DNA from: an uncultured Clostridia bacterium
GTDB taxonomy: Bacteria; Bacillota; Clostridia; Christensenellales; UBA1242
Length of the DNA: 64,000 nucleotides
Direction: 5' to 3'
Assembly (NCBI GenBank): GCA_947366545.1
Contig: CANBAL010000004.1
Location: 29,136 to 93,135 of the forward strand
In this document: one piece after another, positions 4,788-62,481 of the stretch
How positions within the stretch are numbered: position 1 is the stretch's first letter
How the letters are laid out: every line of letters begins with the position of its first letter
The notes under the pieces: generated by a model
The model's input: only the letters and a program-made list of their open reading frames with translations
Database searches by the model: none
What the model was told of the DNA's origin: nothing
Program-made: the position numbers and the translations under genes

Positions 4788-4861
4788 GCGGGTGTAGTTC
4801 AGTGGTAGAACACTAGCCTTCCAAGCTGGTTGCGAGGGTCCGATTCCCTTCACCCGCTCCA
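4788..4861 (+). tRNA. tRNA-Gly (anticodon TCC)
   Basis: Hand-folded cloverleaf. The acceptor pairs GCGGGTG with CACCCGC, the anticodon loop is CTTCCAA, the T-loop is present and CCA is encoded. Confidence 0.9.
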
Positions 4862-4864
4862 CGA

Positions 4865-4941
<77 letters not shown>

Positions 4942-4945
4942 ATAT

Positions 4946-5022
4946 GGTGGTCGTAGTTCAGTTGGTAGAACGCCAGATTGTGGCTCTGGAGGTCAAGAGT
5001 TCGATCCTCTTCGATCACCCCA
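4946..5022 (+). tRNA. tRNA-His (anticodon GTG) with encoded G-1
   Basis: The extra 5' G (4946) lies opposite discriminator C. The acceptor pairs GTGGTCG with CGATCAC, the anticodon loop is TTGTGGC and CCA is encoded. Confidence 0.9.
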
Positions 5023-5052
5023 TATTATTTTTAGCGTGGATTCCCATTGTGA

Positions 5053-5128
5053 TGGGGTGTCGCCAAGCGGTAAGGCATTGGACTCTGACTCCAACATTGC
5101 GTAGGTTCGAATCCTACCACCCCAGCCA
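5053..5128 (+). tRNA. tRNA-Gln (anticodon CTG)
   Basis: The acceptor pairs TGGGGTG with CACCCCA, the anticodon stem-loop is TTGGA-CTCTGAC-TCCAA and CCA is encoded. Confidence 0.9.
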
Positions 5129-5208
5129 AGCGAAAAACTGCGTTTGGGCGGGCTTACCTTTGGCAAGACACAACCTTGTAAAAATTCAATAATAGCACCT
5201 CAGCATAT

Positions 5209-5284
5209 GGCCTACTAGCTCAGTTGGTAGAGCACTTGACTTTTAATCAAGGGGTCCCGGGTTCGAGCCCCGGGTAGACCACCA
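5209..5284 (+). tRNA. tRNA-Lys (anticodon TTT)
   Basis: The D-arm is GCTCAGTTGGTAGAGC, the anticodon stem-loop is CTTGA-CTTTTAA-TCAAG and the T-arm is CCGGG-TTCGAGC-CCCGG. The acceptor GGCCTAC/GTAGACC carries a C3-A70 mismatch. Confidence 0.8.
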
Positions 5285-5359
5285 TGGGGTGTCGCCAAGC
5301 GGTAAGGCACAAGATTTTGATTCTTGCATGCGTAGGTTCAAATCCTGCCACCCCAGCCA
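5285..5359 (+). tRNA. tRNA-Gln (anticodon TTG)
   Basis: The acceptor and D-arm match the first tRNA-Gln. The anticodon stem-loop is CAAGA-TTTTGAT-TCTTG and CCA is encoded. It starts at the base right after the CCA of tRNA-Lys. Confidence 0.9.
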
Positions 5360-5365
5360 CATAAA

Positions 5366-5393
5366 AACGACGATGATTTTATCGTCTTTTTTA
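5366..5393 (+). terminator. Intrinsic terminator after the tRNA cluster
   Basis: Hairpin GACGAT (5369-5374) / ATCGTC (5381-5386) followed by a T-run (5387-5392). Confidence 0.6.
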
Positions 5394-5429
5394 TTTTGTT
5401 ATAAAAGAAATTTATTATATAATAAACGC

Positions 5430-5978
5430 ATGGAACTAACTTTTGAAGATTTTGTACAAATGGAAGAAATAGATAAACAGTACTTCCCTAAGGAAAATAT
5501 TGCACCAGCAAGGGAGTCATTTAAATGGTATTTGGCAGACCCTAATTCTTGTGTTGTGGTAAGAGATAGGGGAAAAGTTGTTGCTTATATAAATATACTT
5601 TCTCTTAAAAAAGATATTTATGACAAGGTGAAATACAACAAGATAAATGAAAGTCAAATTGTAATGGAAGATTTGGAACTTTCTAGTGAAAAATATTATA
5701 ATTATCTATATTTTCCTGTTATTGTGGTGGACAAAAAATATAGAAACTTAAAAACGCTTATGATATTGTTAGAGGCTACTAAAGAAAAAATAGGCCAAGT
5801 GCTAGAAAAGGGTTTTGAAATAAAAGAAGTGATGGTGGACTGCTCCACAAAAGAGGGAACAAAAATATCACAAAGAATTTTAAAATTTAAACCGTTTATG
5901 CCAACCTCGCATAATTCGGTTATACATATCTTAGATGGTAAAAGTTTTATAGAAAATTTGAAATTGGAGAAATTATAA
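5430..5978 (+). CDS. Hypothetical protein, possibly GNAT-fold acetyltransferase
   Basis: The listed ORF 5289-5978 begins inside tRNA-Gln and the terminator. The first ATG after the terminator is 5430 (MELTFEDF...). The segment VIVVDKKYRNLKTLMILLEA weakly resembles GNAT motif A but lacks its glycines. Confidence 0.5.
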   Translation: MELTFEDFVQMEEIDKQYFPKENIAPARESFKWYLADPNSCVVVRDRGKVVAYINILSLKKDIYDKVKYNKINESQIVMEDLELSSEKYYNYLYFPVIVVDKKYRNLKTLMILLEATKEKIGQVLEKGFEIKEVMVDCSTKEGTKISQRILKFKPFMPTSHNSVIHILDGKSFIENLKLEKL

Positions 5979-6894
5979 TGGATTTTAACAAAATATTAGA
6001 AAATAAGGAAAATACATTTAATTCAAAGGGCGAAAATGTGCATATTGACAGCCTTATGATTTATGACAACGGACAGCATTTTGAACATTTTTTTAAACCA
6101 GATGGTTTACACGAAATGAGAAGTATCAGCAAGCTTTTTATAGCCCTTGCTTACGGAATTGCCATAGATAGAGGGATGATTTCTCTTGATGAAAAGGTTT
6201 ATCCGCTTTTAAAAGATTTGGTGGACATTGCTACAAAGGGAAATCTTGAAAAGATAAAGGAGTGGAAGATTAAACATCTTTTAACTTATACTTGTGGCTA
6301 TGCAGAACAGATGTTTTCTGAAAAATTTATCAAAAATGTAAAAGACAACAATCATTTGAATTATGTTTTAAATTACCCTATAACTATGCGGGGGGGGAGA
6401 AGTATACTTACAATAATGCTGATATCTTTTTGCTTTCCGTATACTTTCAAGAAAAGTTTAATGAGAATATCAAAGACTTTATAGTTGGAGAAATCTTTAA
6501 ACCTTTAGGAATAGAGGAATATATTTGGGAAAATTATGGAAAATATTGTCCTGCTGGCACGGGACTATATATTTCACACCATGACCTCTTTAAGGTTGGA
6601 CTTTTAATTTTAAATAAGGGAAATTATGAAGGGCAACAATTAATTTCTAAAAAATATGTTGAAAAGATGTGCTCATGTAGACTAAAAACGCCTTACGCAG
6701 TTAAGCCAGCAAGAGTGTTGCCAAAGGAAGGCGTTGGTTATGTAATGCATATTTCACGAGATGGATACTCATTTAAAGATGGAACAAATGGGCAGTATTT
6801 AATTGTGAATTTCAAGAAAAAACAACTTATCACAATACTTGCAAGCGAAAGTGAAATGAGTTATGTGACCGAAATTTTAAGAGGCGAGATTTAA
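5978..6894 (+). pseudogene. Beta-lactamase-family serine hydrolase, interrupted by a frameshift in a G8 tract
   Basis: ORFs 5978-6484 and 6430-6894 are two halves of one protein. The SxxK motif (SISK) is in the first half. Just after the tract, in the second frame, come GEKYTYNNADIFLL (YxN motif). Adding one G to the run at 6390-6397 joins the frames. Confidence 0.75.
6390..6397 (+). repeat. G8 homopolymer tract inside the serine hydrolase gene
   Basis: The sequence reads directly as atgc-GGGGGGGG-agaag, and this is the frameshift point. Confidence 0.95.
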
Positions 6895-6943: not shown

Positions 6944-7068
6944 CTATCCATAAAGAGTGTGCGAGGGACAGCCCCATTGACCACACAGCAACCTGTCAGG
7001 GTTTTCAAAAAATTTATTTTTAAATTTTGGGGAAGAGATAAGGTGCTAAAGGCTGAATGATGGGTGGA
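6944..7068 (+). promoter_or_regulatory. SAM (S-box, SAM-I-like) riboswitch aptamer
   Basis: The conserved core elements appear in order: AAAGAG, GAGGGAC, GCCCC, TTGA, GCAACC and GGTGCTAAA. P1 pairs ATCCAT (6946-6951) with ATGGGT (7060-7065). The element sits directly upstream of metK. Confidence 0.75.
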
Positions 7069-8611: not shown

Positions 8612-10786
8612 GTGTACGCTGAAGTAATCATTGACCAAGATGCCAAGGCACTTGATAAAGTGTTTGAATATATTGTACCAGATGATTTGCCTGCACGCGT
8701 AGGTATGCGTGCTATTGTGCCTTTTGGTGCGAGGTATATTCAAGGCTTTATTGTTGCCTTAAAAGAAAACTGCGATTATGATAAAAGCAAATTGCGTGCC
8801 ATTTCCTCTCTAGTTGAGGACTTTTCTGCAATAAAACCTGAAATGCTTTCACTTATGAAGTTTATGGCGGAAAAGTATCATTTGAAACTTGCTTCTATTT
8901 TAAGATTATTCTTGCCAAGTGAGATGAGGGAAGGCAAGGTTAAAGAACTTTTTATTACAAAGTATATTCTAAATAGTGAGGCTGATACTACATTATCAAA
9001 ATCAGCAAAAAAACAACAGGAAATTGTAGATTATTTAAAAGAAAATCTTTCTGCCACCTCAAGCGAACTTAGTGAAAAGTTTGGCGCGAGTGCGGTGAAA
9101 GCACTGGCTGAGAAAGGGATTATACTAAAACAAAAAGAGCAGATAAATCGCACCCCTTGGATTATGCAAGAGGGATTTAAAAAAGTGCAGTTAAATCCTA
9201 TGCAGCAAAATGCGGTGGACACTATACGCGAAAACAAAACCTATCTACTTCATGGTGTGACGGGCAGTGGTAAGACCGAGGTGTATATGCACCTTATTGA
9301 GAAAGAACTTTCGAAAGGCAAAAATGCGATTATGCTTGTGCCTGAAATTTCGTTGACACCTCAGATTATGGCAAACTTTAAGTCGCGATTTGGGGACAGC
9401 GTTGCACTTCTTCATAGCGGGCTTTCTGCGGGGGAACGCTTTGATGAATGGAAAAGGCTTTTTTCTGGGCAGGCACGCATTGCCATTGGTGCAAGGTCTG
9501 CAATTTTTGCTCCTCTTGAAAACTTAGGAATAATCATTATTGATGAAGAGCATGAGCAAAGTTATATTTCCGAGTCTAATCCAAGATACAACACACATGA
9601 TATTGCAACCTTTAGGGCAAAGTATAATGCTTGTCCATTACTTCTTGGCAGTGCTACGCCAAGTGTGGAGAGTTACGAAAAGGCGAAGAAGGGGGAGTAC
9701 ACTTTAATTGAACTTCCAGTGCGAGCCAACGGCAAAGATATGCCAAAGATACAAATTATTGATATGATAAATGAACTGCGGGCGGGAAACACAGGAATCT
9801 TCTCTTCGCAGCTTGTAAGTGACCTTGCAAAAGTGATTAACGACAAAAAGCAAGCTATGATTTTTATCAACAGGCGAGGATATGCCTCTTTTATGAGATG
9901 CCGTGAGTGTGGGTACATTGCAAAGTGTAGCGATTGCGATGTCAGCCTTGTATACCACAGGGAAGACAACCGCCTTAAATGCCATTATTGTGGCAAGCAG
10001 TTTAAGGTGCTTGACAAATGTCCACAGTGTGGCAGTGAGAATATTAAGCAGGGTGCGGTTGGCACAGAGAAGGTGGTGCAGGAACTTCGCAACATCTTTC
10101 CAAATGTGAAGGTCTTACGAATGGACAATGACACAACCTCCACCAAAAATGCACATCAAAAAATACTTAATGAATTTAAAAATACCCTTCCTGCTATCCT
10201 TGTGGGAACACAAATGATTGCAAAAGGGCATGATTTTGAAAATGTTGTGCTTGTGGGTATTGTGGATGCCGACCAAAGCCTATATCAAACGGACTACCGC
10301 AGCACCGAGAGAACCTTCCAACTTATCACGCAGGTTTCTGGGCGTGCGGGGAGAAGTCAAGATGAGGGAAAGGTTGTGCTTCAAACTTATGCACCAAGAC
10401 ATTATGTATACAAATTTGCATCCAACTATGATTACAAAGGTTTCTTTAAAAAAGAGGAGAATATACGCGAGGTTGCCTCTTTTCCACCTTTTTCTCGGAT
10501 TATACGCGTACTTTTTGCAGATACCGATGAAAATTATGTGCGAGACCTCTTGAAATTGTGTTATAATAATGCTATAAAATTAAAGGAAAAATATCCAAAT
10601 GAGATAATCTATATGGATGCCATGAAATCACCAATCAAGCGAATGCAAAACAAATTCCGCTATCAAATTCTTATGAGGGTAAGACTTGAGTATGCCGACG
10701 AAATAGAAAAAGATTTGTTTGAGATTGTGGACAAGGCGTCCAAAAACAGCGTATTTTTTGAGATTAATCCGCAAAATTTAAGTTAG
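8612..10786 (+). CDS. priA: Primosomal replication-restart helicase PriA
   Basis: Walker A GVTGSGKTEVY, a DEEH box, and the Cys4 zinc region CRECGYIAKCSDCDVSLVYHREDNRLKCHYCG...CPQCG. The likely start is the GTG at 8612, after the RBS AAGGAGGGAGG. The ORF track start is 8594. Confidence 0.9.
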   Translation: MYAEVIIDQDAKALDKVFEYIVPDDLPARVGMRAIVPFGARYIQGFIVALKENCDYDKSKLRAISSLVEDFSAIKPEMLSLMKFMAEKYHLKLASILRLFLPSEMREGKVKELFITKYILNSEADTTLSKSAKKQQEIVDYLKENLSATSSELSEKFGASAVKALAEKGIILKQKEQINRTPWIMQEGFKKVQLNPMQQNAVDTIRENKTYLLHGVTGSGKTEVYMHLIEKELSKGKNAIMLVPEISLTPQIMANFKSRFGDSVALLHSGLSAGERFDEWKRLFSGQARIAIGARSAIFAPLENLGIIIIDEEHEQSYISESNPRYNTHDIATFRAKYNACPLLLGSATPSVESYEKAKKGEYTLIELPVRANGKDMPKIQIIDMINELRAGNTGIFSSQLVSDLAKVINDKKQAMIFINRRGYASFMRCRECGYIAKCSDCDVSLVYHREDNRLKCHYCGKQFKVLDKCPQCGSENIKQGAVGTEKVVQELRNIFPNVKVLRMDNDTTSTKNAHQKILNEFKNTLPAILVGTQMIAKGHDFENVVLVGIVDADQSLYQTDYRSTERTFQLITQVSGRAGRSQDEGKVVLQTYAPRHYVYKFASNYDYKGFFKKEENIREVASFPPFSRIIRVLFADTDENYVRDLLKLCYNNAIKLKEKYPNEIIYMDAMKSPIKRMQNKFRYQILMRVRLEYADEIEKDLFEIVDKASKNSVFFEINPQNLS

Positions 10787-16522: not shown

Positions 16523-16525
16523 ATA

Positions 16526-16555
16526 AAAGCCGCACCTTAAGTGCGGCTTTTATTT
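16526..16555 (+). terminator. Intrinsic terminator
   Basis: Hairpin GCCGCAC (16529-16535) / GTGCGGC (16541-16547) followed by a T-run. Confidence 0.8.
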
Positions 16556-16584
16556 AAAAAAATACAAAAAATTGGAAAATACGC

Positions 16585-16612
16585 TTGACTCCCCCCCCCG
16601 TGGTGTTATTAT
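16585..16612 (+). promoter_or_regulatory. Sigma-A promoter whose spacer contains a C9 tract
   Basis: TTGACT (16585-16590), a 16-nt spacer made of C9 plus GTGGTGT (ending in TGt), then TATTAT (16607-16612). The RBS AAGGAG and the ATG at 16635 follow. Confidence 0.6.
16591..16599 (+). repeat. C9 homopolymer tract in a promoter spacer
   Basis: The sequence reads directly as ttgact-CCCCCCCCC-gtgg. Confidence 0.95.
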
Positions 16613-16634
16613 AAAAATATATAAGGAGATACCT

Positions 16635-17387
16635 ATGAAAATTAAAACCGCAAAAATATTAAGCGTATTTTTCTTCCTCATATTTGTTATCGCTCTTCCA
16701 CTTGTATGTACCTTTATTCCATACAGGGAGCCAGTACTTATTGAGGCGTCTTTTAATATAGCACCTGCTGAGGGGACAAGTGTGGTGGTGTATGGCGAAC
16801 TTTACAATCCTACAATCGTAACGATTGAAGATTTGGAAATTCAAATCAACTTTTATAATGAAAATGATGAGTTTATCACTACAAAAAAAGTTAATGTAAC
16901 TTTGAATGTTGGTGCTGGACAGACAAAAGAGTTTATTGAGACAATAAATGTTGGCACTGTACTTAATGAGCAGTGCCAGTATGGAGTAGGCGATATACTT
17001 TACACCTATACACAACTTTCTTGGTATCTATATTTCTGCATGGGCATTTGTGCTTACTTTATAACCTTCCTATTACTTGGAAAACAAAAATATTACTTTG
17101 AAGTGAATGGACAGAAGGTGGAGGTGTTTGCATCTTCTTACAAATTAGCCCTTATTGTTGACGGGGAGAAGGTGGCTGAAACTACTCAAAGAAAGGGCAT
17201 TATGCTGGACCTTGAATACAAACTTGGCGAAAGTGAAATTAAGGTGGAGTCTAGAAACCCTATAATCCTTCCTGGGCCAAAGGTGACAATCATGGTTGAC
17301 GGCAGCAAGCCTACAATCACAGATACTAAACAACATGGATTTATTAAGATAGAAAGCAAAAAGAAGGAAAATGAAGTCTTGCAGTAG
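16635..17387 (+). CDS. Hypothetical membrane protein
   Basis: The ATG at 16635 follows a good RBS. The listed 16572 start runs through the promoter. There is an N-terminal TM helix (ILSVFFFLIFVIALPLV), a second TM (WYLYFCMGICAYFITFLLLG), and beta-rich soluble segments. I recognise no family. Confidence 0.6.
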   Translation: MKIKTAKILSVFFFLIFVIALPLVCTFIPYREPVLIEASFNIAPAEGTSVVVYGELYNPTIVTIEDLEIQINFYNENDEFITTKKVNVTLNVGAGQTKEFIETINVGTVLNEQCQYGVGDILYTYTQLSWYLYFCMGICAYFITFLLLGKQKYYFEVNGQKVEVFASSYKLALIVDGEKVAETTQRKGIMLDLEYKLGESEIKVESRNPIILPGPKVTIMVDGSKPTITDTKQHGFIKIESKKKENEVLQ

Positions 17388-17470
17388 TGCAAGACTTTTT
17401 TTTCGCATAATTGACATTTTTTTCATGATACCTCTTAAATTTTGGTCAAAAAAAACTTTAAGAGGTTTTT

Positions 17471-56507: not shown

Positions 56508-57098
56508 GTGTCAAAGAATGAAGAATTAGAAAAAGAATGTAACTGCACAGAAGATTGCCACTGCGGGAAACATTGCGAATGTGATAGTGAAAACAAATGT
56601 AGTGACAACTGTCAGTGCGGTTGCGATTGCGAGGAAGAATGCGAATGCGGTGAAAATTGCGAATGCGCTTGCGAAGAGGAAAAAGACAAATATCTCCTCC
56701 TTGCCCAGCAGGTTCAAGCAGATTTTGATAACTTCCGTCGCCGGTCCCGTGAGGAAATAGAGCGGGCGAGAACCAGCGGACAGGTGTCGGTGATAGAGGC
56801 GTTTCTGCCCTGCCTTGATACCTTTAAAGAGGCGAAAAAGTTAATCACCGACGAAAGCGTACTTCAAGGCGTTGAGATGATTGAAAATAAAATTCTTTCA
56901 GCCTTAAAAGAACTTGGAGTGGAAAAAATTGAAAGTGTTGGGCAGGTTTACAGCCCACATCTCCACAACGCAATAGCGGTTATGAGAGATGAAAGCAAAG
57001 AAAATGATATCATCTTGGAAGAATTCCAAGCAGGATATAAATACAAAGACAAAGTAATAAGATATGCGAAAGTCATAGTCAATAAAAAGGAGGGTTAA
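56508..57098 (+). CDS. grpE: Nucleotide exchange factor GrpE with a Cys-rich N-terminal extension
   Basis: The GrpE core ([13 protein letters not shown] ... [13 protein letters not shown]) is preceded by residues 11-55, which contain 16 Cys in CxC/CxxxC spacing. It uses a GTG start after AAAGGGGA. There is no in-frame ATG, GTG or TTG between this start and the core. Confidence 0.9.
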
Positions 57099-57102
57099 AA
57101 TT

Positions 57103-58929
57103 ATGAGTAAAATTATTGGAATTGACTTAGGAACAACAAATTCATGTGTGGCAGTGATGGAAGGTGGCAAACCAACCGTTATTGCAAATGCAGAGGGAGA
57201 CAGAACAACTCCATCTGTTGTCGCTTACACCAAAGAGGGTGAGAGACTTGTCGGCAAGGTTGCAAAAAGACAGGCAATCGTAAACGCTGACAATACAATT
57301 CAGTCTATCAAAAGAGAGATGGGCACAAACTACAAAGCAAAGCTTAATGGCAAGGAATATTCTCCACAAGAGATTTCTGCTATGGTGCTTGGAAAACTTA
57401 AGGCTGATGCAGAAAGTTATCTTGGTGGCAGTGTAACACAAGCGGTTATCACAGTACCAGCCTACTTTAATGACAGCCAGCGTCAAGCAACCAAGGATGC
57501 CGGCAAGATTGCTGGGCTTGAAGTGCTTAGAATTATCAACGAGCCAACCGCAGCCGCTCTTGCTTATGGACTTGACAAGGGGGAGAACTCAAACCAAAAG
57601 ATTTTAGTTTATGACCTTGGTGGTGGTACATTTGATGTATCTATTCTTGAAATCGGTGACGGCGTGTTTGAAGTACTTTCTACAAATGGTAACACTCGTC
57701 TTGGCGGAGATGACTTTGATAACAGAATTATCGACCTTCTTGTAGAAGAATTTAAGAAGACAAACAACATTGATCTTTCAAGCGATCGTCTTGCAATGCA
57801 AAGACTTAAAGAAGCAGCAGAAAAAGCAAAGATTGACCTTTCTGCAACTCCAAAAACTACAATCTCTCTTCCATTCATTTCAGCGGATGCAACAGGCCCT
57901 AAACATATGGAATATGAGCTTACTCGTGCAAAATTTGATGCAATCACAGAGGATCTTGTTAAGGAAACTATCGACTGCACAGTAAGAGCGCTTAAAGATG
58001 CTGGACTTAACAAAGGACAAATTGACAAGGTTGTACTTGTTGGTGGCTCTACTCGTATCCCAGCAGTATTTGAGGCCGTTAAAAACTTTACTGGCAAGGA
58101 TCCATACAAAGGTATAAACCCAGATGAATGTGTTGCTGTTGGTGCCGCAATTCAAGCCGGCGTACTTGGCGGAGAGGTTAAGGATGTTCTTCTTCTTGAT
58201 GTAACTCCACTTTCTCTTGGGATTGAAACCCTTGGCGGAGTGTTTACAAAACTTATTGAAAGAAACACTACAATTCCTACAAAGAAATCACAAGTGTTCT
58301 CAACCGCAGTAGATAATCAACCTGGCGTTGACATTCATGTCCTTCAAGGTGAGCGTGAATTTGCTGCTCAAAACAAGACACTTGGCAGATTCCAACTTAC
58401 AGACATTCCACCTGCACCAAGAGGAGTACCTCAAATTGAAGTTACTTTTGATATTGATGCAAATGGTATTGTTAATGTTTCAGCAAAAGATTTAGGCACT
58501 AATAAAGAGCAGAAGATTACAATCACAGCATCTTCAAACCTTAAAGATGAAGATATTGAAAAGGCAATCAAAGAGGCAGAGGAACACGCTGAGGAAGATA
58601 AGAAGCGTAAAGAGTTTGTTGAAACCAAAAATCAAGCCGACAATATGGTTTACAGTATTGAAAAAATGCTTAAAGAAAATGGCGACAAACTATCTGCCGA
58701 TGACAAGAAGAAACTTGAAGAAGCAGTAGAAAAAGCAAAGAAAGACTTTGAAAGCACTGACCTTGATACAGTTAAGAAAGGCCTTGAAGAACTTACAAAT
58801 GTATCAAACGAAGTATTCACAAAGATGTATCAAGCCGCAGGTGCTGGTGCTAATGGAGCAGGTGCAGCTGGCGGTAACAACGGCGGAAACGATGGCAACC
58901 CAGAAGTTGTAGTGGATGATAACAAATAA
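57103..58929 (+). CDS. dnaK: Molecular chaperone DnaK (Hsp70)
   Basis: [26 protein letters not shown] and [10 protein letters not shown], 608 aa. Confidence 0.98.
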
Positions 58930-58930
58930 A

Positions 58931-59400
58931 ATGAAAACATTAATTATCGTTGATATGCAAAAGGGCTTTATTAATAAAAATAATGAATTTTTAGTAAAAA
59001 ATATCGAAAATTTATTAAAAAATCATAAATTTGATAGAGTTTTTGCAACAAAGTTTGTAAACAACTTAGATAGTCAATATGTAAAATTATTAAATTTTGA
59101 TAGAATGTGTGATGCAAAGTCACAAGAATTTGCTGTGACTTTGCCCGATACTGCGGTGATTTTGGAGAAAACCTCTTATGCCCTGCCAACTGAATTTGTG
59201 GGGGGGGAACAAAGGAGGTTTTCCTCTGTGGCACTGATTATGACGCCTGTGTGCTAGCCATTGCATATCAATTATTTGATAAGGGTATTCAGCCCCGTAT
59301 AATTATGGACTGCACAGGTAGTGCATCAAATAATCCACTTGATAAAAATGAGTTTAAAAAACTTTGCCGAAGAAATTTTGGCGAAAAATCGATAGTATAA
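58931..59400 (+). pseudogene. Isochorismatase/cysteine hydrolase family gene, frameshifted in a G8 tract
   Basis: The N-terminus MKTLIIVDMQKGF is the typical beta1-DxQ pattern. After the tract, the other frame reads TKEVFLCGTDYDACVLAIAYQLFDKGIQPRIIMDCTGS (catalytic Cys motif) and ends at the TAA at 59398-59400. One extra G restores a single ORF. The alternative start is 58916. Confidence 0.75.
59200..59207 (+). repeat. G8 homopolymer tract inside the isochorismatase-family gene
   Basis: The sequence reads directly as tttgt-GGGGGGGG-aacaaagg. Confidence 0.95.
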
Positions 59401-59408
59401 GGACAATT

Positions 59409-60533
59409 ATGGCAAACAAAGACTATTATTCAATTTTAGGTGTTGAAAAGACGGCGGGGGAGGACGAAATTAAGTCCGCCTATCGTCGCATGGCAAAAAA
59501 ATATCACCCTGATTTAAATAAAACTCCTGAGGCGGCTGAAAAGTTTAAGGAAGTCAACGAGGCTTACTCAGTGCTTAGCGACCCTCAAAAGAAGGCTAAT
59601 TATGATCAGTTTGGCTCAGCCGATGGCCCACAATTCAGTGGTGGTCAAGGCGGGGCTGGCTTTGGCGACTTCTTTGGTGGTGGCGGTGGTTTTGGTGATT
59701 TCTTTAGTGACATCTTTTCTGCCTTTGGTGGCGGAGCAAGAGGAGCGCGCGCAACTCAGCGTGGGCAAGATATAAATGCATCAATGAATCTTTCCTTTGA
59801 AGAGGCTTGCTTTGGCTGTGAGAAGAATATCACTGTAGGACGAATTGAAACTTGCAATGCTTGTTCTGGCACAGGTGCAAGAAATGGAAAAGATTATTCC
59901 GTTTGCCCAGACTGTCATGGTAGTGGCAGAGTACGCTTCCAGCAAAACACCATGATGGGCACTATTGTGCGTGAGGGCGAATGTCCTAAATGTGGTGGCA
60001 GCGGTAAAATTATCCGTGAAAAATGCAGTGTATGTAATGGTAAAGGCTATCAAAGAGTCAACAAGACAATTAAAGTTAAAGTACCAGCAGGTATTGATGA
60101 TGACCAAACACTTCGTATGCGTGGCGAAGGAAATGCTCCAATGGGCGAGGGAACAAATGGTGACCTTAATATACGCATAAAGGTGGAGAAACACAAGTTG
60201 CTTGTAAGAAAGGGCAGTGATATCTGTCTTGACCTATATCTTCCATTTACAACCACTTTGCTCGGCGGTAAGGTGGAAATCCCAACACTTGACGGGGATT
60301 ACACATTAAATATTCCGGAGCTTACTGCAAGTGGCACTGTGATGAGGATTAAAAATAAGGGTGTAAAGATACTTAATCGTGAGTCGCGAGGTGATATGCT
60401 TGTGACAATCAAAGCGGAAGTGCCAAAAAGTCTTGATAAACAGACTAAGGCAAAGATAGAAGACCTTGCATCATGTTTTAATACCAGTTCCTATGCAAAA
60501 TATGATAAATTTTTAAAAAATAAGAAAAAATAG
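59409..60533 (+). CDS. dnaJ: Molecular chaperone DnaJ
   Basis: The ATG at 59409 opens [12 protein letters not shown]. It has a J-domain HPD, a Gly/Phe region and four CxxCxGxG zinc motifs. The listed 59364 start lies within the upstream pseudogene. Confidence 0.95.
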
Positions 60534-60536
60534 TGA

Positions 60537-60998
60537 CTATTCATCACTATTTTTTTGATTTTTAAGGATTTTTAGGGTTGATTTATCTATATTTTCATTA
60601 AGTTTATTAATTGAATTATAAATTTGTGCGCGACTAAGAACCTTTGCAATTGCATTTAAATAAAGGAAAACTGTAGCAATTGTAGTGCTTACTCCAATCA
60701 TTAATAAAATTATTGATGTTATGGCAATTGGACATGCTAATTGAGGTGTCTCTGCATAAGAAATCGCTGTACCTATAAGACAGGAGACGGCGAAAACAAA
60801 AATAAATGCTATTATTAGAATGCTAATTATAAATATAATTCTCAATCTACGAAGAGAATTGACATCATTTGTTTCTAGATTATAATCTGAGTTTTGCGTT
60901 ATTTCAGTTTCATATTCTTTTGTTGAAATAGTTGAAATTATGCAAGTAATAATAGTACACAATAAAGAAAGAAGAAAAAATATATAAAAATTATTCAT
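60537..60998 (-). CDS. Hypothetical small membrane protein (153 aa)
   Basis: Three predicted TM helices and an RBS AAGGAG. It is driven by the C9-containing promoter. I recognise no family. Confidence 0.6.
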   Translation of the reverse strand: MNNFYIFFLLSLLCTIITCIISTISTKEYETEITQNSDYNLETNDVNSLRRLRIIFIISILIIAFIFVFAVSCLIGTAISYAETPQLACPIAITSIILLMIGVSTTIATVFLYLNAIAKVLSRAQIYNSINKLNENIDKSTLKILKNQKNSDE

Positions 60999-61018
60999 TC
61001 ATAATCTCCTTGCCTTTA

Positions 61019-61045
61019 ATTATACTCGGGGGGGGGAGTTGTCAA
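61019..61045 (-). promoter_or_regulatory. Sigma-A promoter whose spacer contains a C9 tract (minus strand)
   Basis: The minus strand reads TTGACA, then act-CCCCCCCCC-gag, then TATAAT. Both hexamers are perfect but the spacer is only 15 nt. Confidence 0.6.
61028..61036 (-). repeat. C9 (G9 on the plus strand) homopolymer tract in a promoter spacer
   Basis: The plus strand reads directly as tatactc-GGGGGGGGG-agttgtcaa. Confidence 0.95.
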
Positions 61046-61071
61046 GTATTTTTCGAAAATAGTAGAAAAAG

Positions 61072-61100
61072 TTGATGAATCTTTTATTATGTGATAAAAT
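61072..61100 (+). promoter_or_regulatory. Sigma-A promoter (extended -10) of rnhB, probably giving a leaderless mRNA
   Basis: TTGATG (61072-61077), a 17-nt spacer ending in TGa, then TAAAAT (61095-61100). The rnhB ATG begins 7 nt after the -10, and no SD is present. Confidence 0.5.
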
Positions 61101-61106
61101 TTTAAT

Positions 61107-61688
61107 ATGTTAGATTACGAAAAAAAATACAAAGGCAAAGTTATTGCTGGAATTGATGAGGCAGGGAGAGGCCCACTTGCGGGGCCGGTGGTTTGTGCTT
61201 GCGCCGTTATGCCAATGGACAATATAATCGAGGGGGTTAATGACAGCAAAAAACTTTCCGCTAAAAAACGGGAAGAGTTATATGACAAAATAAAAAAAGT
61301 GGCAATAAGTTACTCCATTGTGGAGGTAGACGAGAAAACCATTGACAAGATAAACATTTTGCAGGCGACAAAACTTGGTATGAAAAAAGCACTTGAAACT
61401 TTGAGTGTGAAGCCAGACATCGTGCTTATTGATGCCGTCAAAATTGATTGCCGTGTGCCACAAGAAAACATAATAAAAGGGGATGCATTATCTTATAATA
61501 TTGCTGCGGCCTCCATTCTCGCGAAAGTGTATCGAGATAGGATGATGGTGGAACTTGACAAAAAGTATCCTCAATATGGGTTTGCAAAACATAAGGGCTA
61601 CGGAACAAAGGCACATATTGAAGCACTTAAAAAATACGGTAAATGTGAACTGCACAGAGATACATTTATCAAAAAGTTTGTGAAATAA
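61107..61688 (+). CDS. rnhB: Ribonuclease HII
   Basis: GIDEAGRGPLAGPVV catalytic motif, DSKKLS, 193 aa. Confidence 0.92.
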   Translation: MLDYEKKYKGKVIAGIDEAGRGPLAGPVVCACAVMPMDNIIEGVNDSKKLSAKKREELYDKIKKVAISYSIVEVDEKTIDKINILQATKLGMKKALETLSVKPDIVLIDAVKIDCRVPQENIIKGDALSYNIAAASILAKVYRDRMMVELDKKYPQYGFAKHKGYGTKAHIEALKKYGKCELHRDTFIKKFVK

Positions 61689-61706: not shown

Positions 61707-62381
61707 TTATTTTTTATATTTTCTGTTTACTTCAATTTCACTTATTTCTATATTTTTTGGTACCTGCAATGTAAACAACATTACTTTAGCCATATCTTCT
61801 GGGTCTATCCACGCATTTGGATCGGCTATTTTTTCACCATTATATTTTTCGTTAAATTTGGTGTTCATTCCGCCCGCGTTGAATTGAATTACACGACAAG
61901 GTGTCTTTTTAAGTTCCGCACCAATATTGAGACTTGTTCCTCTTATCGCCCATTTGGAGGTCGTGTAACCGACTTGATTGAGTGGGCCAGATTTTAGACC
62001 TACGGTGGAGCCGACATTGATTATATCAGCCTCGTTGGCTTTGATGAGGTCAAATAATTTACTAATAAGGTACATTGGGGCGATACTATTAACTTTCATA
62101 ACTCTTTCAAGTTCATAGTAGGGAGTGTTGTTGGTGGGTTGAATACATGGCACACCAGCACAGTTTATTAGGGCGTCAAATTTGCTGTATTTTTCTGCTA
62201 TAATTTCGCACGCCTTATTCATAGATTTTTCATTTAATAAATCACATTTAATAAATTCGCAAGGGTAATCGGGTTTTGTTCTGCAAAGGGCTATGACCTC
62301 AAATCCCCCCCCCGCATTGCAGAGTTTGCCGAAGGCCTTGCCAAGGCCATCACTGGCACCAGTTAAAATAATTCTTTTCAT
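61707..62381 (-). CDS. Short-chain dehydrogenase/reductase (SDR)
   Basis: The ATG at 62381 follows AAGGAGAAAAAG. It has the TGASDGLG cofactor motif, NAG and a YTTSK catalytic motif. It contains an in-frame G9 tract that encodes GGG. Confidence 0.8.
   Translation of the reverse strand: MKRIILTGASDGLGKAFGKLCNAGGGFEVIALCRTKPDYPCEFIKCDLLNEKSMNKACEIIAEKYSKFDALINCAGVPCIQPTNNTPYYELERVMKVNSIAPMYLISKLFDLIKANEADIINVGSTVGLKSGPLNQVGYTTSKWAIRGTSLNIGAELKKTPCRVIQFNAGGMNTKFNEKYNGEKIADPNAWIDPEDMAKVMLFTLQVPKNIEISEIEVNRKYKK
62305..62313 (-). repeat. G9 (C9 on the plus strand) homopolymer tract in-frame within the SDR gene
   Basis: The minus strand reads aat gcg ggg ggg gga ttt (NAGGGF), about 23 codons from the start. 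Confidence 0.95.
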
Positions 62382-62481
62382 ACTTTTTCTCCTTAATCTA
62401 ATAATAACAAAATTGCGGTTAGAATGCAAATTATTTGGTTATTAACTTTGCAATTTGACGGAAAAGTTATATACTTAGTTT

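Follow-up and report, generated by a model that had tools for sequence, protein, structure and literature searches.

In this study, we examined a 64,000-nucleotide (nt) stretch of DNA from an uncultured Clostridia bacterium (39% GC; hereafter the window, whose positions are used throughout), and in particular a run of nine C residues placed between the two hexamers of a promoter on its minus strand. The promoter precedes a gene for an orphan membrane protein of 153 amino acids (aa) with three long helices (60537–60998, minus strand; open reading frame (ORF) call and AlphaFold2 (AF2) model). Two conserved plus-strand genes flank the site: dnaJ (59409–60533; ORF call, synteny with L168, one of the relatives' loci, which are designated L throughout), convergent with the cargo gene, and rnhB, encoding RNase HII (61107–61688; Pfam PF01351, E = 1.6e-45), divergent from it. 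Promoter, cargo gene and predicted terminator make up a small self-contained cassette between these core genes; the promoter is probably phase variable or tunable.

Read directly, the minus strand runs cgaaaaatac, the −35 hexamer TTGACA (61045–61040), act, the tract CCCCCCCCC (61036–61028; G9 on the plus strand), gag, the −10 hexamer TATAAT (61024–61019), taaaggc, the Shine-Dalgarno sequence AAGGAG (61011–61006), attatga and the start codon ATG at 60998. Both hexamers are perfect consensus, the −10 lies 15 nt 3′ of the −35, and the tract, which we propose to be slippage prone, is exactly C9; the −35 is kept in L168, L067, L192 and L169. The original prediction had described this same anatomy, and only its start codon had to be corrected: the real start of the 153-aa ORF is the second ATG, at 60998, 7 nt from the Shine-Dalgarno sequence. 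The first ATG (61002–61000), 3 nt from that sequence, opens only a three-codon mini-ORF (ATG AAT GAA TAA; 61002–60991, minus strand), which runs across the start codon of the 153-aa gene in another frame. Given that the other plausible sigma-A promoters of the window have spacers of 16–17 nt, the 15-nt spacer is suboptimal, as was implied when it was first called weak. The arrangement TTGACA-act-C9-gag-TATAAT thus places a G/C repeat of at least about 7 nt between −35 and −10, the hallmark of phase variation by simple sequence repeats (SSRs) in promoter spacers. An Rfam search found no known structured RNA at this promoter or at the second C9 promoter of the window.

This sister promoter (16585–16612, plus strand) was likewise read directly and agrees with its first description as TTGACT followed by C9. 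It runs ggaaaatacgc, TTGACT (16585–16590), C9 (16591–16599), gtggtgt and TATTAT (16607–16612), with a 16-nt spacer and a TGn extended −10, and is followed by AAGGAG and an ATG at 16635. Its cargo is a 250-aa protein (16635–17387, plus strand), with a terminator at 17373–17398. In order, the protein comprises an N-terminal membrane helix, an FxLYD domain (NCBIfam NF038353, 24.5 bits, only just over the cutoff of that family), a second membrane helix and a β-rich C-terminal part, the last according to an AF2 model of low confidence (predicted local distance difference test score (pLDDT) 50, too poor for a structure search). The whole unit (16523–17470) is missing from every recovered sipL–spoIIR locus of relatives (L171–L191). 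The two cargoes had been taken to share a small, multi-transmembrane character; as a loose likeness this stands, but the proteins are unrelated, the one with three helices in 153 aa and the other with two helices and FxLYD in 250 aa. An AAAATAC motif upstream of both −35 hexamers, which had also been held to be shared, did not survive comparison, as it is not conserved in the orthologous promoter of relatives, where the upstream sequence is AAATTTAC. A shuffle test of AAAATAC (two observed against 0.11 expected) is circular, because the pattern came from the same two sites. We therefore regard the motif not as a specific element but as generic A-rich sequence 5′ of the −35.

The 153-aa cargo is an orphan by every search made. 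In a set of 5.8 billion proteins it matched itself only, and in another of 1.84 billion it gave one marginal, repeat-like match of 48 residues and no homologue. Nothing significant was found in Pfam, NCBIfam, PADLOC or PHROGs, and thus no defence or phage family. Its AF2 model (helices 2–35, 41–83 and 85–152; pLDDT 71) has no fold match in the PDB.

The C9 promoter tract is more than chance. The window contains the pattern TTGAC, 0–4 nt and at least seven C two times, where 0.02 occurrences are expected, and none of 100 shuffles reached two; the design recurs, moreover, in another cassette (L168-type) and in a third promoter of relatives, both described below, so that the earlier argument against chance is supported. 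By length, C runs number 21 (length 4), two (5) and two (9), and G runs 122 (4), 41 (5), one (6), two (8) and one (9). The G/C run-length spectrum is therefore bimodal, with five runs of 8–9 and none of 7, and A and T runs decay smoothly. When compared with 748 kb of GC-matched relatives, G/C runs of at least 8 nt are ∼15-fold denser (five in 64 kb, or 78 per Mb, vs. 5.3 per Mb; Poisson P about 3e-5), the relatives' rate predicting 0.34 in 64 kb. Within the 64 kb of genome seen, SSRs are thus over-represented in the manner of a multi-locus contingency genome. All five tracts lie in or before accessory or variable genes, and none within the roughly 50 core genes.

Beyond the original prediction, three of these G/C8–9 tracts are coding, and both promoter-plus-gene units are strain- or lineage-specific cassettes. 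A G8 tract (6390–6397, plus strand) splits a beta-lactamase-family gene (5978–6894); G9 would restore one 305-aa frame, and the protein repaired by one G matches PF00144 at 54 bits, across the tract. A second G8 tract (59200–59207, plus strand) frameshifts an isochorismatase-family gene (58916–59400) between dnaK and dnaJ, whose Pfam score rises from 17.5 to 49.1 bits upon addition of one G; its ortholog is an in-frame G9 in L067 and G6 in L168. The third, identified by run scan and ORF call, is an in-frame minus-strand G9 (62305–62313; C9 on the plus strand) encoding Gly-Gly-Gly in an SDR oxidoreductase gene (61707–62429). Coding tracts hence occur in both in-frame and out-of-frame lengths, another trait of multi-locus contingency genomes. 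The G8 tracts at 6390–6397 and 59200–59207 may represent phase-OFF alleles or pseudogenes, or else result from assembly errors in homopolymers. The intervals that hold two of these genes vary in content. Between dnaK and dnaJ, the window has the isochorismatase-family gene (58916–59400), L168 the same gene and a DUF4932 gene (L168:6800–8281), and L169 a pyrophosphatase gene (L169:1828–2187); between rnhB and rsmE, the window has the SDR gene and L168 four small genes, one of them ribonuclease-like and another a helix-turn-helix gene.

The closest public relatives are uncultured gut metagenome-assembled genomes labelled Firmicutes, Christensenella sp. or Clostridia, with RnhB identities of at most 87%. 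A metagenome scan returned nothing above 80% RnhB identity to the window, and exact-protein look-ups of the 153-aa cargo and of RnhB gave no match. Among 80 species-representative loci, a tract lies upstream of rnhB in two, which are the two closest: L168 (L001 after re-fetching with longer flanks) and L067. The L168-type promoter reads TTGACA-aat-C9-gac-TATAAT, also with a 15-nt spacer, and precedes a 144-aa three-helix membrane protein with no similarity to the 153-aa protein detectable by BLASTP. When the window cassette and the L168-type cassette are compared, the best-conserved 30 nt are the promoter core (87%), the coding parts being about 50% identical. In L192 the tract is again C9. 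L169, on the other hand, which was obtained from another sample, shares 98.4% identity with L168 and encodes the same RnhB protein, carries C10 in mid-contig, with a 16-nt spacer. In this small sample, drawn from relatives outside the window's own species, repeat number thus differs at an orthologous locus (C9 in L168, L067 and L192 vs. C10 in L169), as it does in phase variation. Three further RnhB homologues (P0010, P0011 and P0014; 84–86% to the window) were set aside as comparators, having another synteny and no tract.

The cassette is also gained, lost and transferred. The RnhB homologue P0005 (85% to the window, 97% to that of L168) marks an empty cassette site, and L165–L167, with 97% RnhB identity to L168, are without the entire promoter-plus-gene unit (L165:1–272 vs. 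L168:9418–9950); at the junction of the empty site lies AAAATAACG, a microhomology between two similar terminator-like hairpins. The dnaJ/rnhB site accordingly holds a window-type cassette, an L168-type cassette or nothing (L165–L167), the alternative contents typical of a minimal mobile element. A 655-bp block (L168:9370–10025), which begins 48 nt before the end of dnaJ, spans the cassette and reaches 25 nt into rnhB, is 99.2–100% identical among L168, L067 and L192, and the adjoining dnaJ and rnhB only 84–88%. Its breakpoints are sharp and fall inside dnaJ and rnhB, and the only ORF of the cassette is the cargo, as expected when a minimal mobile element recombines through its flanks. The near-identity of the block, set against the divergence of the adjoining genes, indicates recent exchange of the cassette between diverged lineages by such flank recombination.

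A third tract promoter, ACGCTTGACG-t-G9-atttgc-TAAACT with a 16-nt spacer, was found in seven contigs of relatives (L171:14439–14466, L172, L173, L175, L176, L182 and L184), and in L188 its tract is G10 (L188:12834–12862). Together with the C10 of L169, this shows that the lengthened tracts which had been envisaged do exist in nature. The promoter precedes a 727-aa signal-peptide protein without family, between ypeB and spoVG, in a unit that the window lacks; the case is less certain, as a second, tract-free promoter-like site lies nearer the 727-aa gene. Its upstream part, ACGCTTGAC, matches window 16581–16589. Two Logan contigs belonging to separate runs, L182 and L184, stop exactly 11 nt beyond G9, and L170 starts 60 nt from C9. 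Contig ends at tracts were considered as a signal of within-sample heterogeneity and rejected, because a tract-length branch in a k-mer graph would not place the ends where they are; the ends of L182 and L184 may reflect structural variation downstream.

More distant genomes carry the same kind of promoter. In a Firmicute of 25% GC, a 532-aa type IV prepilin-like protein follows TTGACT-a-G12-actatgt-TATAAT (L123:16989–17021), a sequence with a 20-nt spacer that looks like a classical phase-variable surface-protein promoter. Two related Microviridae have TTGACA-ata-C9-ggta-TATAAT (L194:3699–3726, minus strand) and TTGACA-ata-C9-agg-TATAAT (L195:36–62, minus strand), between the replication gene and a small basic protein plus structural genes, a design that matches that of the bacterial cassettes. 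The viral scan gave three matches in all, which by a rough estimate is near chance for that collection, and two flank-anchored scans for microvirus relatives with other tract lengths returned the original contigs only. Overall, both promoter tracts of the window drive membrane proteins and those of relatives precede the signal-peptide and prepilin-like proteins; the three coding tracts of the window fall in cytoplasmic-type enzymes.

From these observations we suggest, with a probability of roughly 0.55, that the C9 run is an SSR contingency element in the spacer of a sigma-A-type promoter. At C9, perfect hexamers set 15 nt apart would yield low or no transcription. Slipped-strand mispairing during replication would add or remove one C, and C10 and C11, with spacers of 16 and 17 nt, would give progressively more transcription of the 153-aa membrane protein; C9 is assigned the low state, and C10 and C11 the higher ones, because the other plausible promoters of the window have 16–17-nt spacers. 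Sigma-A would use this promoter, expression would follow spacer length, switching would be frequent and reversible, and a clonal population would always hold low and high expressers, with phenotypic consequences. The five tracts of the window, two in cassette promoters and three in coding regions of accessory enzymes, look like parts of a multi-locus contingency system. More tentatively, a clade of uncultured, Christensenellales-like, spore-forming gut Clostridia might possess a contingency system with G/C9 tracts at a high density, roughly 80 per Mb, carried in part on tiny promoter-gene-terminator cassettes that sit between housekeeping genes, vary among strains and are swapped across species-level lineages. 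The same C9 design is present in gut microviruses, and the whole would amount to a multi-locus SSR phase-variation genome in a commensal anaerobe, equipped with a portable switchable promoter module.

Several observations weigh against a contingency switch. The cassette promoter has C9 in four of five assemblies, and the third promoter G9 in seven of eight contigs; moreover, the three C9 copies of L168, L067 and L192 share the recently transferred block and thus count as one observation, not as independent ones. When strains at about 99% identity are compared, almost every indel is a ±1 change in a homopolymer, and intergenic or terminator A/T7–8 runs show such changes about as often as the G/C9 tracts, which demonstrates polymorphism without pointing to hypermutability. 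Assembly errors are conceivable as the source of the ±1 variants, and the microviruses, whose two diverged promoters both have exactly C9, could be a hint at a fixed functional element. Such an element is an unlikely but serious alternative: C9 would then be static and selected, with no switching, and the rare +1 variants would be neutral or erroneous. A fixed spacer could set a constitutively low output of a potentially toxic membrane protein, or be a site for a host factor on short-spacer promoters. It would account for a tract of exactly nine in the window, in the L168-type cassette, in most copies of the third promoter and in the microviruses, for a polymorphism no greater than that of A/T7–8 runs, and for the coincidence of 15-nt spacing and perfect hexamers in three promoters (window, L168-type cassette and L195). 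However, the tract is generic, lying 0, 1 or 3 nt after the −35 and being poly-C or poly-G on the sense strand, and the total spacer is 15 or 16 nt while the tract remains at nine. A promoter-binding factor, furthermore, leaves unexplained the coding tracts of 8–9 nt, in which eight breaks the frame and nine restores it, and slippage dynamics by themselves lead one to expect a modal length of nine, as in Campylobacter jejuni (PMC3401435). For these reasons we favour a mutational device over a sequence-specific site.

Two further accounts were considered. Given that all tracts are tied to accessory or variable genes and that cassettes move horizontally, G/C9 runs might be neutral scars of cassette creation or import (donor-genome signatures or junction artefacts), their place in the spacer having no regulatory meaning. 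We regard this as improbable: the recombination breakpoints lie inside dnaJ and rnhB, away from the tract, and conservation between the two cassettes, which have otherwise diverged, is highest at the tract and hexamers. Neutral G/C runs of 9 nt should also decay by interruption at 39% GC, yet runs of 7 are absent and runs of 6 almost so, and the tract occupies the promoter spacer in at least three non-homologous promoter contexts. It is more improbable still, and indeed hardly credible, that hexamers and ORF are fortuitous and nothing is expressed. The cargo is, to be sure, an orphan without homologues, and the antisense strand of its ORF also bears a perfect TTGACA-16-TATAAT; but the unit is complete from promoter through Shine-Dalgarno sequence, ATG and ORF to hairpin, and the positional counterpart in relatives has the same layout, with an intact ORF in four genomes. 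The contingency element in the promoter spacer therefore remains our preferred explanation.

Promoters of this type are known from pathogens. In Neisseria meningitidis, the poly-C tract of opc and the poly-G tract of porA, both of about 9–14 nt and between −35 and −10, determine by their length the spacing of the hexamers and thereby, as reportedly shown by experiment, the level of expression. These two are the closest precedents of the C9 promoter (Sarkari et al. 1994; van der Ende et al. 1995; as cited in PMC5084427). The likeness extends to a G/C homopolymer in a sigma-70-type spacer, membrane-protein cargo and similar tract lengths. Yet, opc and porA encode characterized outer-membrane proteins of Gram-negative pathogens, whereas the present tracts belong to uncultured spore-forming gut Clostridia and serve orphan cargo; the predominant state here is, in addition, the short 15-nt spacer. 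Repeats of other composition can occupy the same position. In the vlp promoters of Mycoplasma hyorhinis, a poly-A repeat in the −35/−10 spacer controls transcription. In Haemophilus influenzae, TA repeats do so in the divergent hifA/hifB promoter (van Ham et al. 1993; as cited in PMC5084427). The hif locus resembles ours also in its divergent gene pair, but here the tract touches the cassette promoter only, rnhB having its own promoter 36 nt away.

With regard to tract number and length, the obvious comparison is C. jejuni, in which the modal poly-G/C length of nine was ascribed to mutational pattern, G8 undergoing mainly insertions and G11 mainly deletions (PMC3401435), and which averages about 29 tracts per genome (PMC4965091). 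Both systems combine many G/C tracts, a modal nine, ON/OFF frameshifting of coding regions and accessory functions. In C. jejuni, however, the tracts are mostly intragenic and in surface-glycan genes, whereas here two of five lie in promoter spacers and the coding ones in hydrolase and oxidoreductase genes; the density in the window (five per 64 kb) also exceeds the C. jejuni average. C. jejuni is not known to possess MutS/MutL-type mismatch repair.

As for the cassettes, the minimal mobile elements of Neisseria (defined in PMC3082526, citing Snyder et al. 2007) are similar whole-gene cassettes without mobility genes, placed between conserved genes, with alternative cassettes or an empty site and with homologous recombination in the flanks. 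Phase-variable promoters are no part of their definition, and the present units are very small, at about 0.55–0.95 kb, and sit inside housekeeping clusters (dnaK-dnaJ-rnhB and sipL-spoIIR). Phage morons, too, are units with their own promoter and terminator, as is our cassette. The searchable literature contained no account of SSR-type promoter switches in Christensenellales or in gut Clostridia related to them. The proposed mechanism itself is already known, and what appears not to have been described there is the host group, the tract density and the association with very small cassettes that can be exchanged.

If the tracts do switch, uncultured commensals would hedge their bets with orphan membrane or surface proteins and some accessory enzymes, which would matter in the gut for the persistence of strains, for phage pressure and for immune recognition. 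The rapid divergence of the cargo proteins, their presence/absence polymorphism and their horizontal exchange fit diversifying pressure, which might come from phage, bacteriocins or the host. The cassettes also show that lineages with a divergence of about 15% can swap accessory units of very small size at precisely the same site of the core genome. Should switching occur, such loci could be sought in metagenomes by a simple rule: TTGAC, 0–4 nt and a G/C run of at least 8.

The surroundings of the tract contain other promoter-like sequences. The promoter of rnhB, TTGATG-17-TGaTAAAAT (61072–61100, plus strand), does not include the tract and lies 36 nt from the cassette promoter; it is retained in strains without the cassette, with the same arrangement in L168 and in the cassette-free L165. 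The rnhB gene has no Shine-Dalgarno sequence, and its extended −10, TGnTAAAAT, ends 6 nt 5′ of the ATG (window 61072–61107, plus strand; L168 about 9960–10001), a layout conserved in relatives whether the cassette is present or absent. Given this short distance, the rnhB mRNA is probably leaderless. Within the 153-aa gene, the perfect antisense TTGACA-16-TATAAT (60859–60886, plus strand) is directed at the tract and rnhB. It is missing from the L168-type cassette, and could be an antisense promoter, a read-through promoter or a product of chance, about 0.1 perfect promoters being expected per window by a rough estimate.

Elsewhere, the window is core chromosome of a spore-forming member of the Clostridia, with dnaE, metK, priA, sipL, spoIIR, a mur/fts cluster, sigE/sigG, hrcA-grpE-dnaK-dnaJ, rnhB and rsmE, almost all on the plus strand. 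A cluster of six tRNA genes lies directly 5′ of the accessory genes at 5289–6894, and an S-adenosylmethionine (SAM) riboswitch precedes metK (window 4788–5356 and 6945–7066). At its N terminus, GrpE (56508–57098; L168:4344–4964) is extended by ∼60 residues that resemble a metallothionein, with CxC and CxxC repeats and a high content of Cys, Glu and His; the extension is conserved in the relative.

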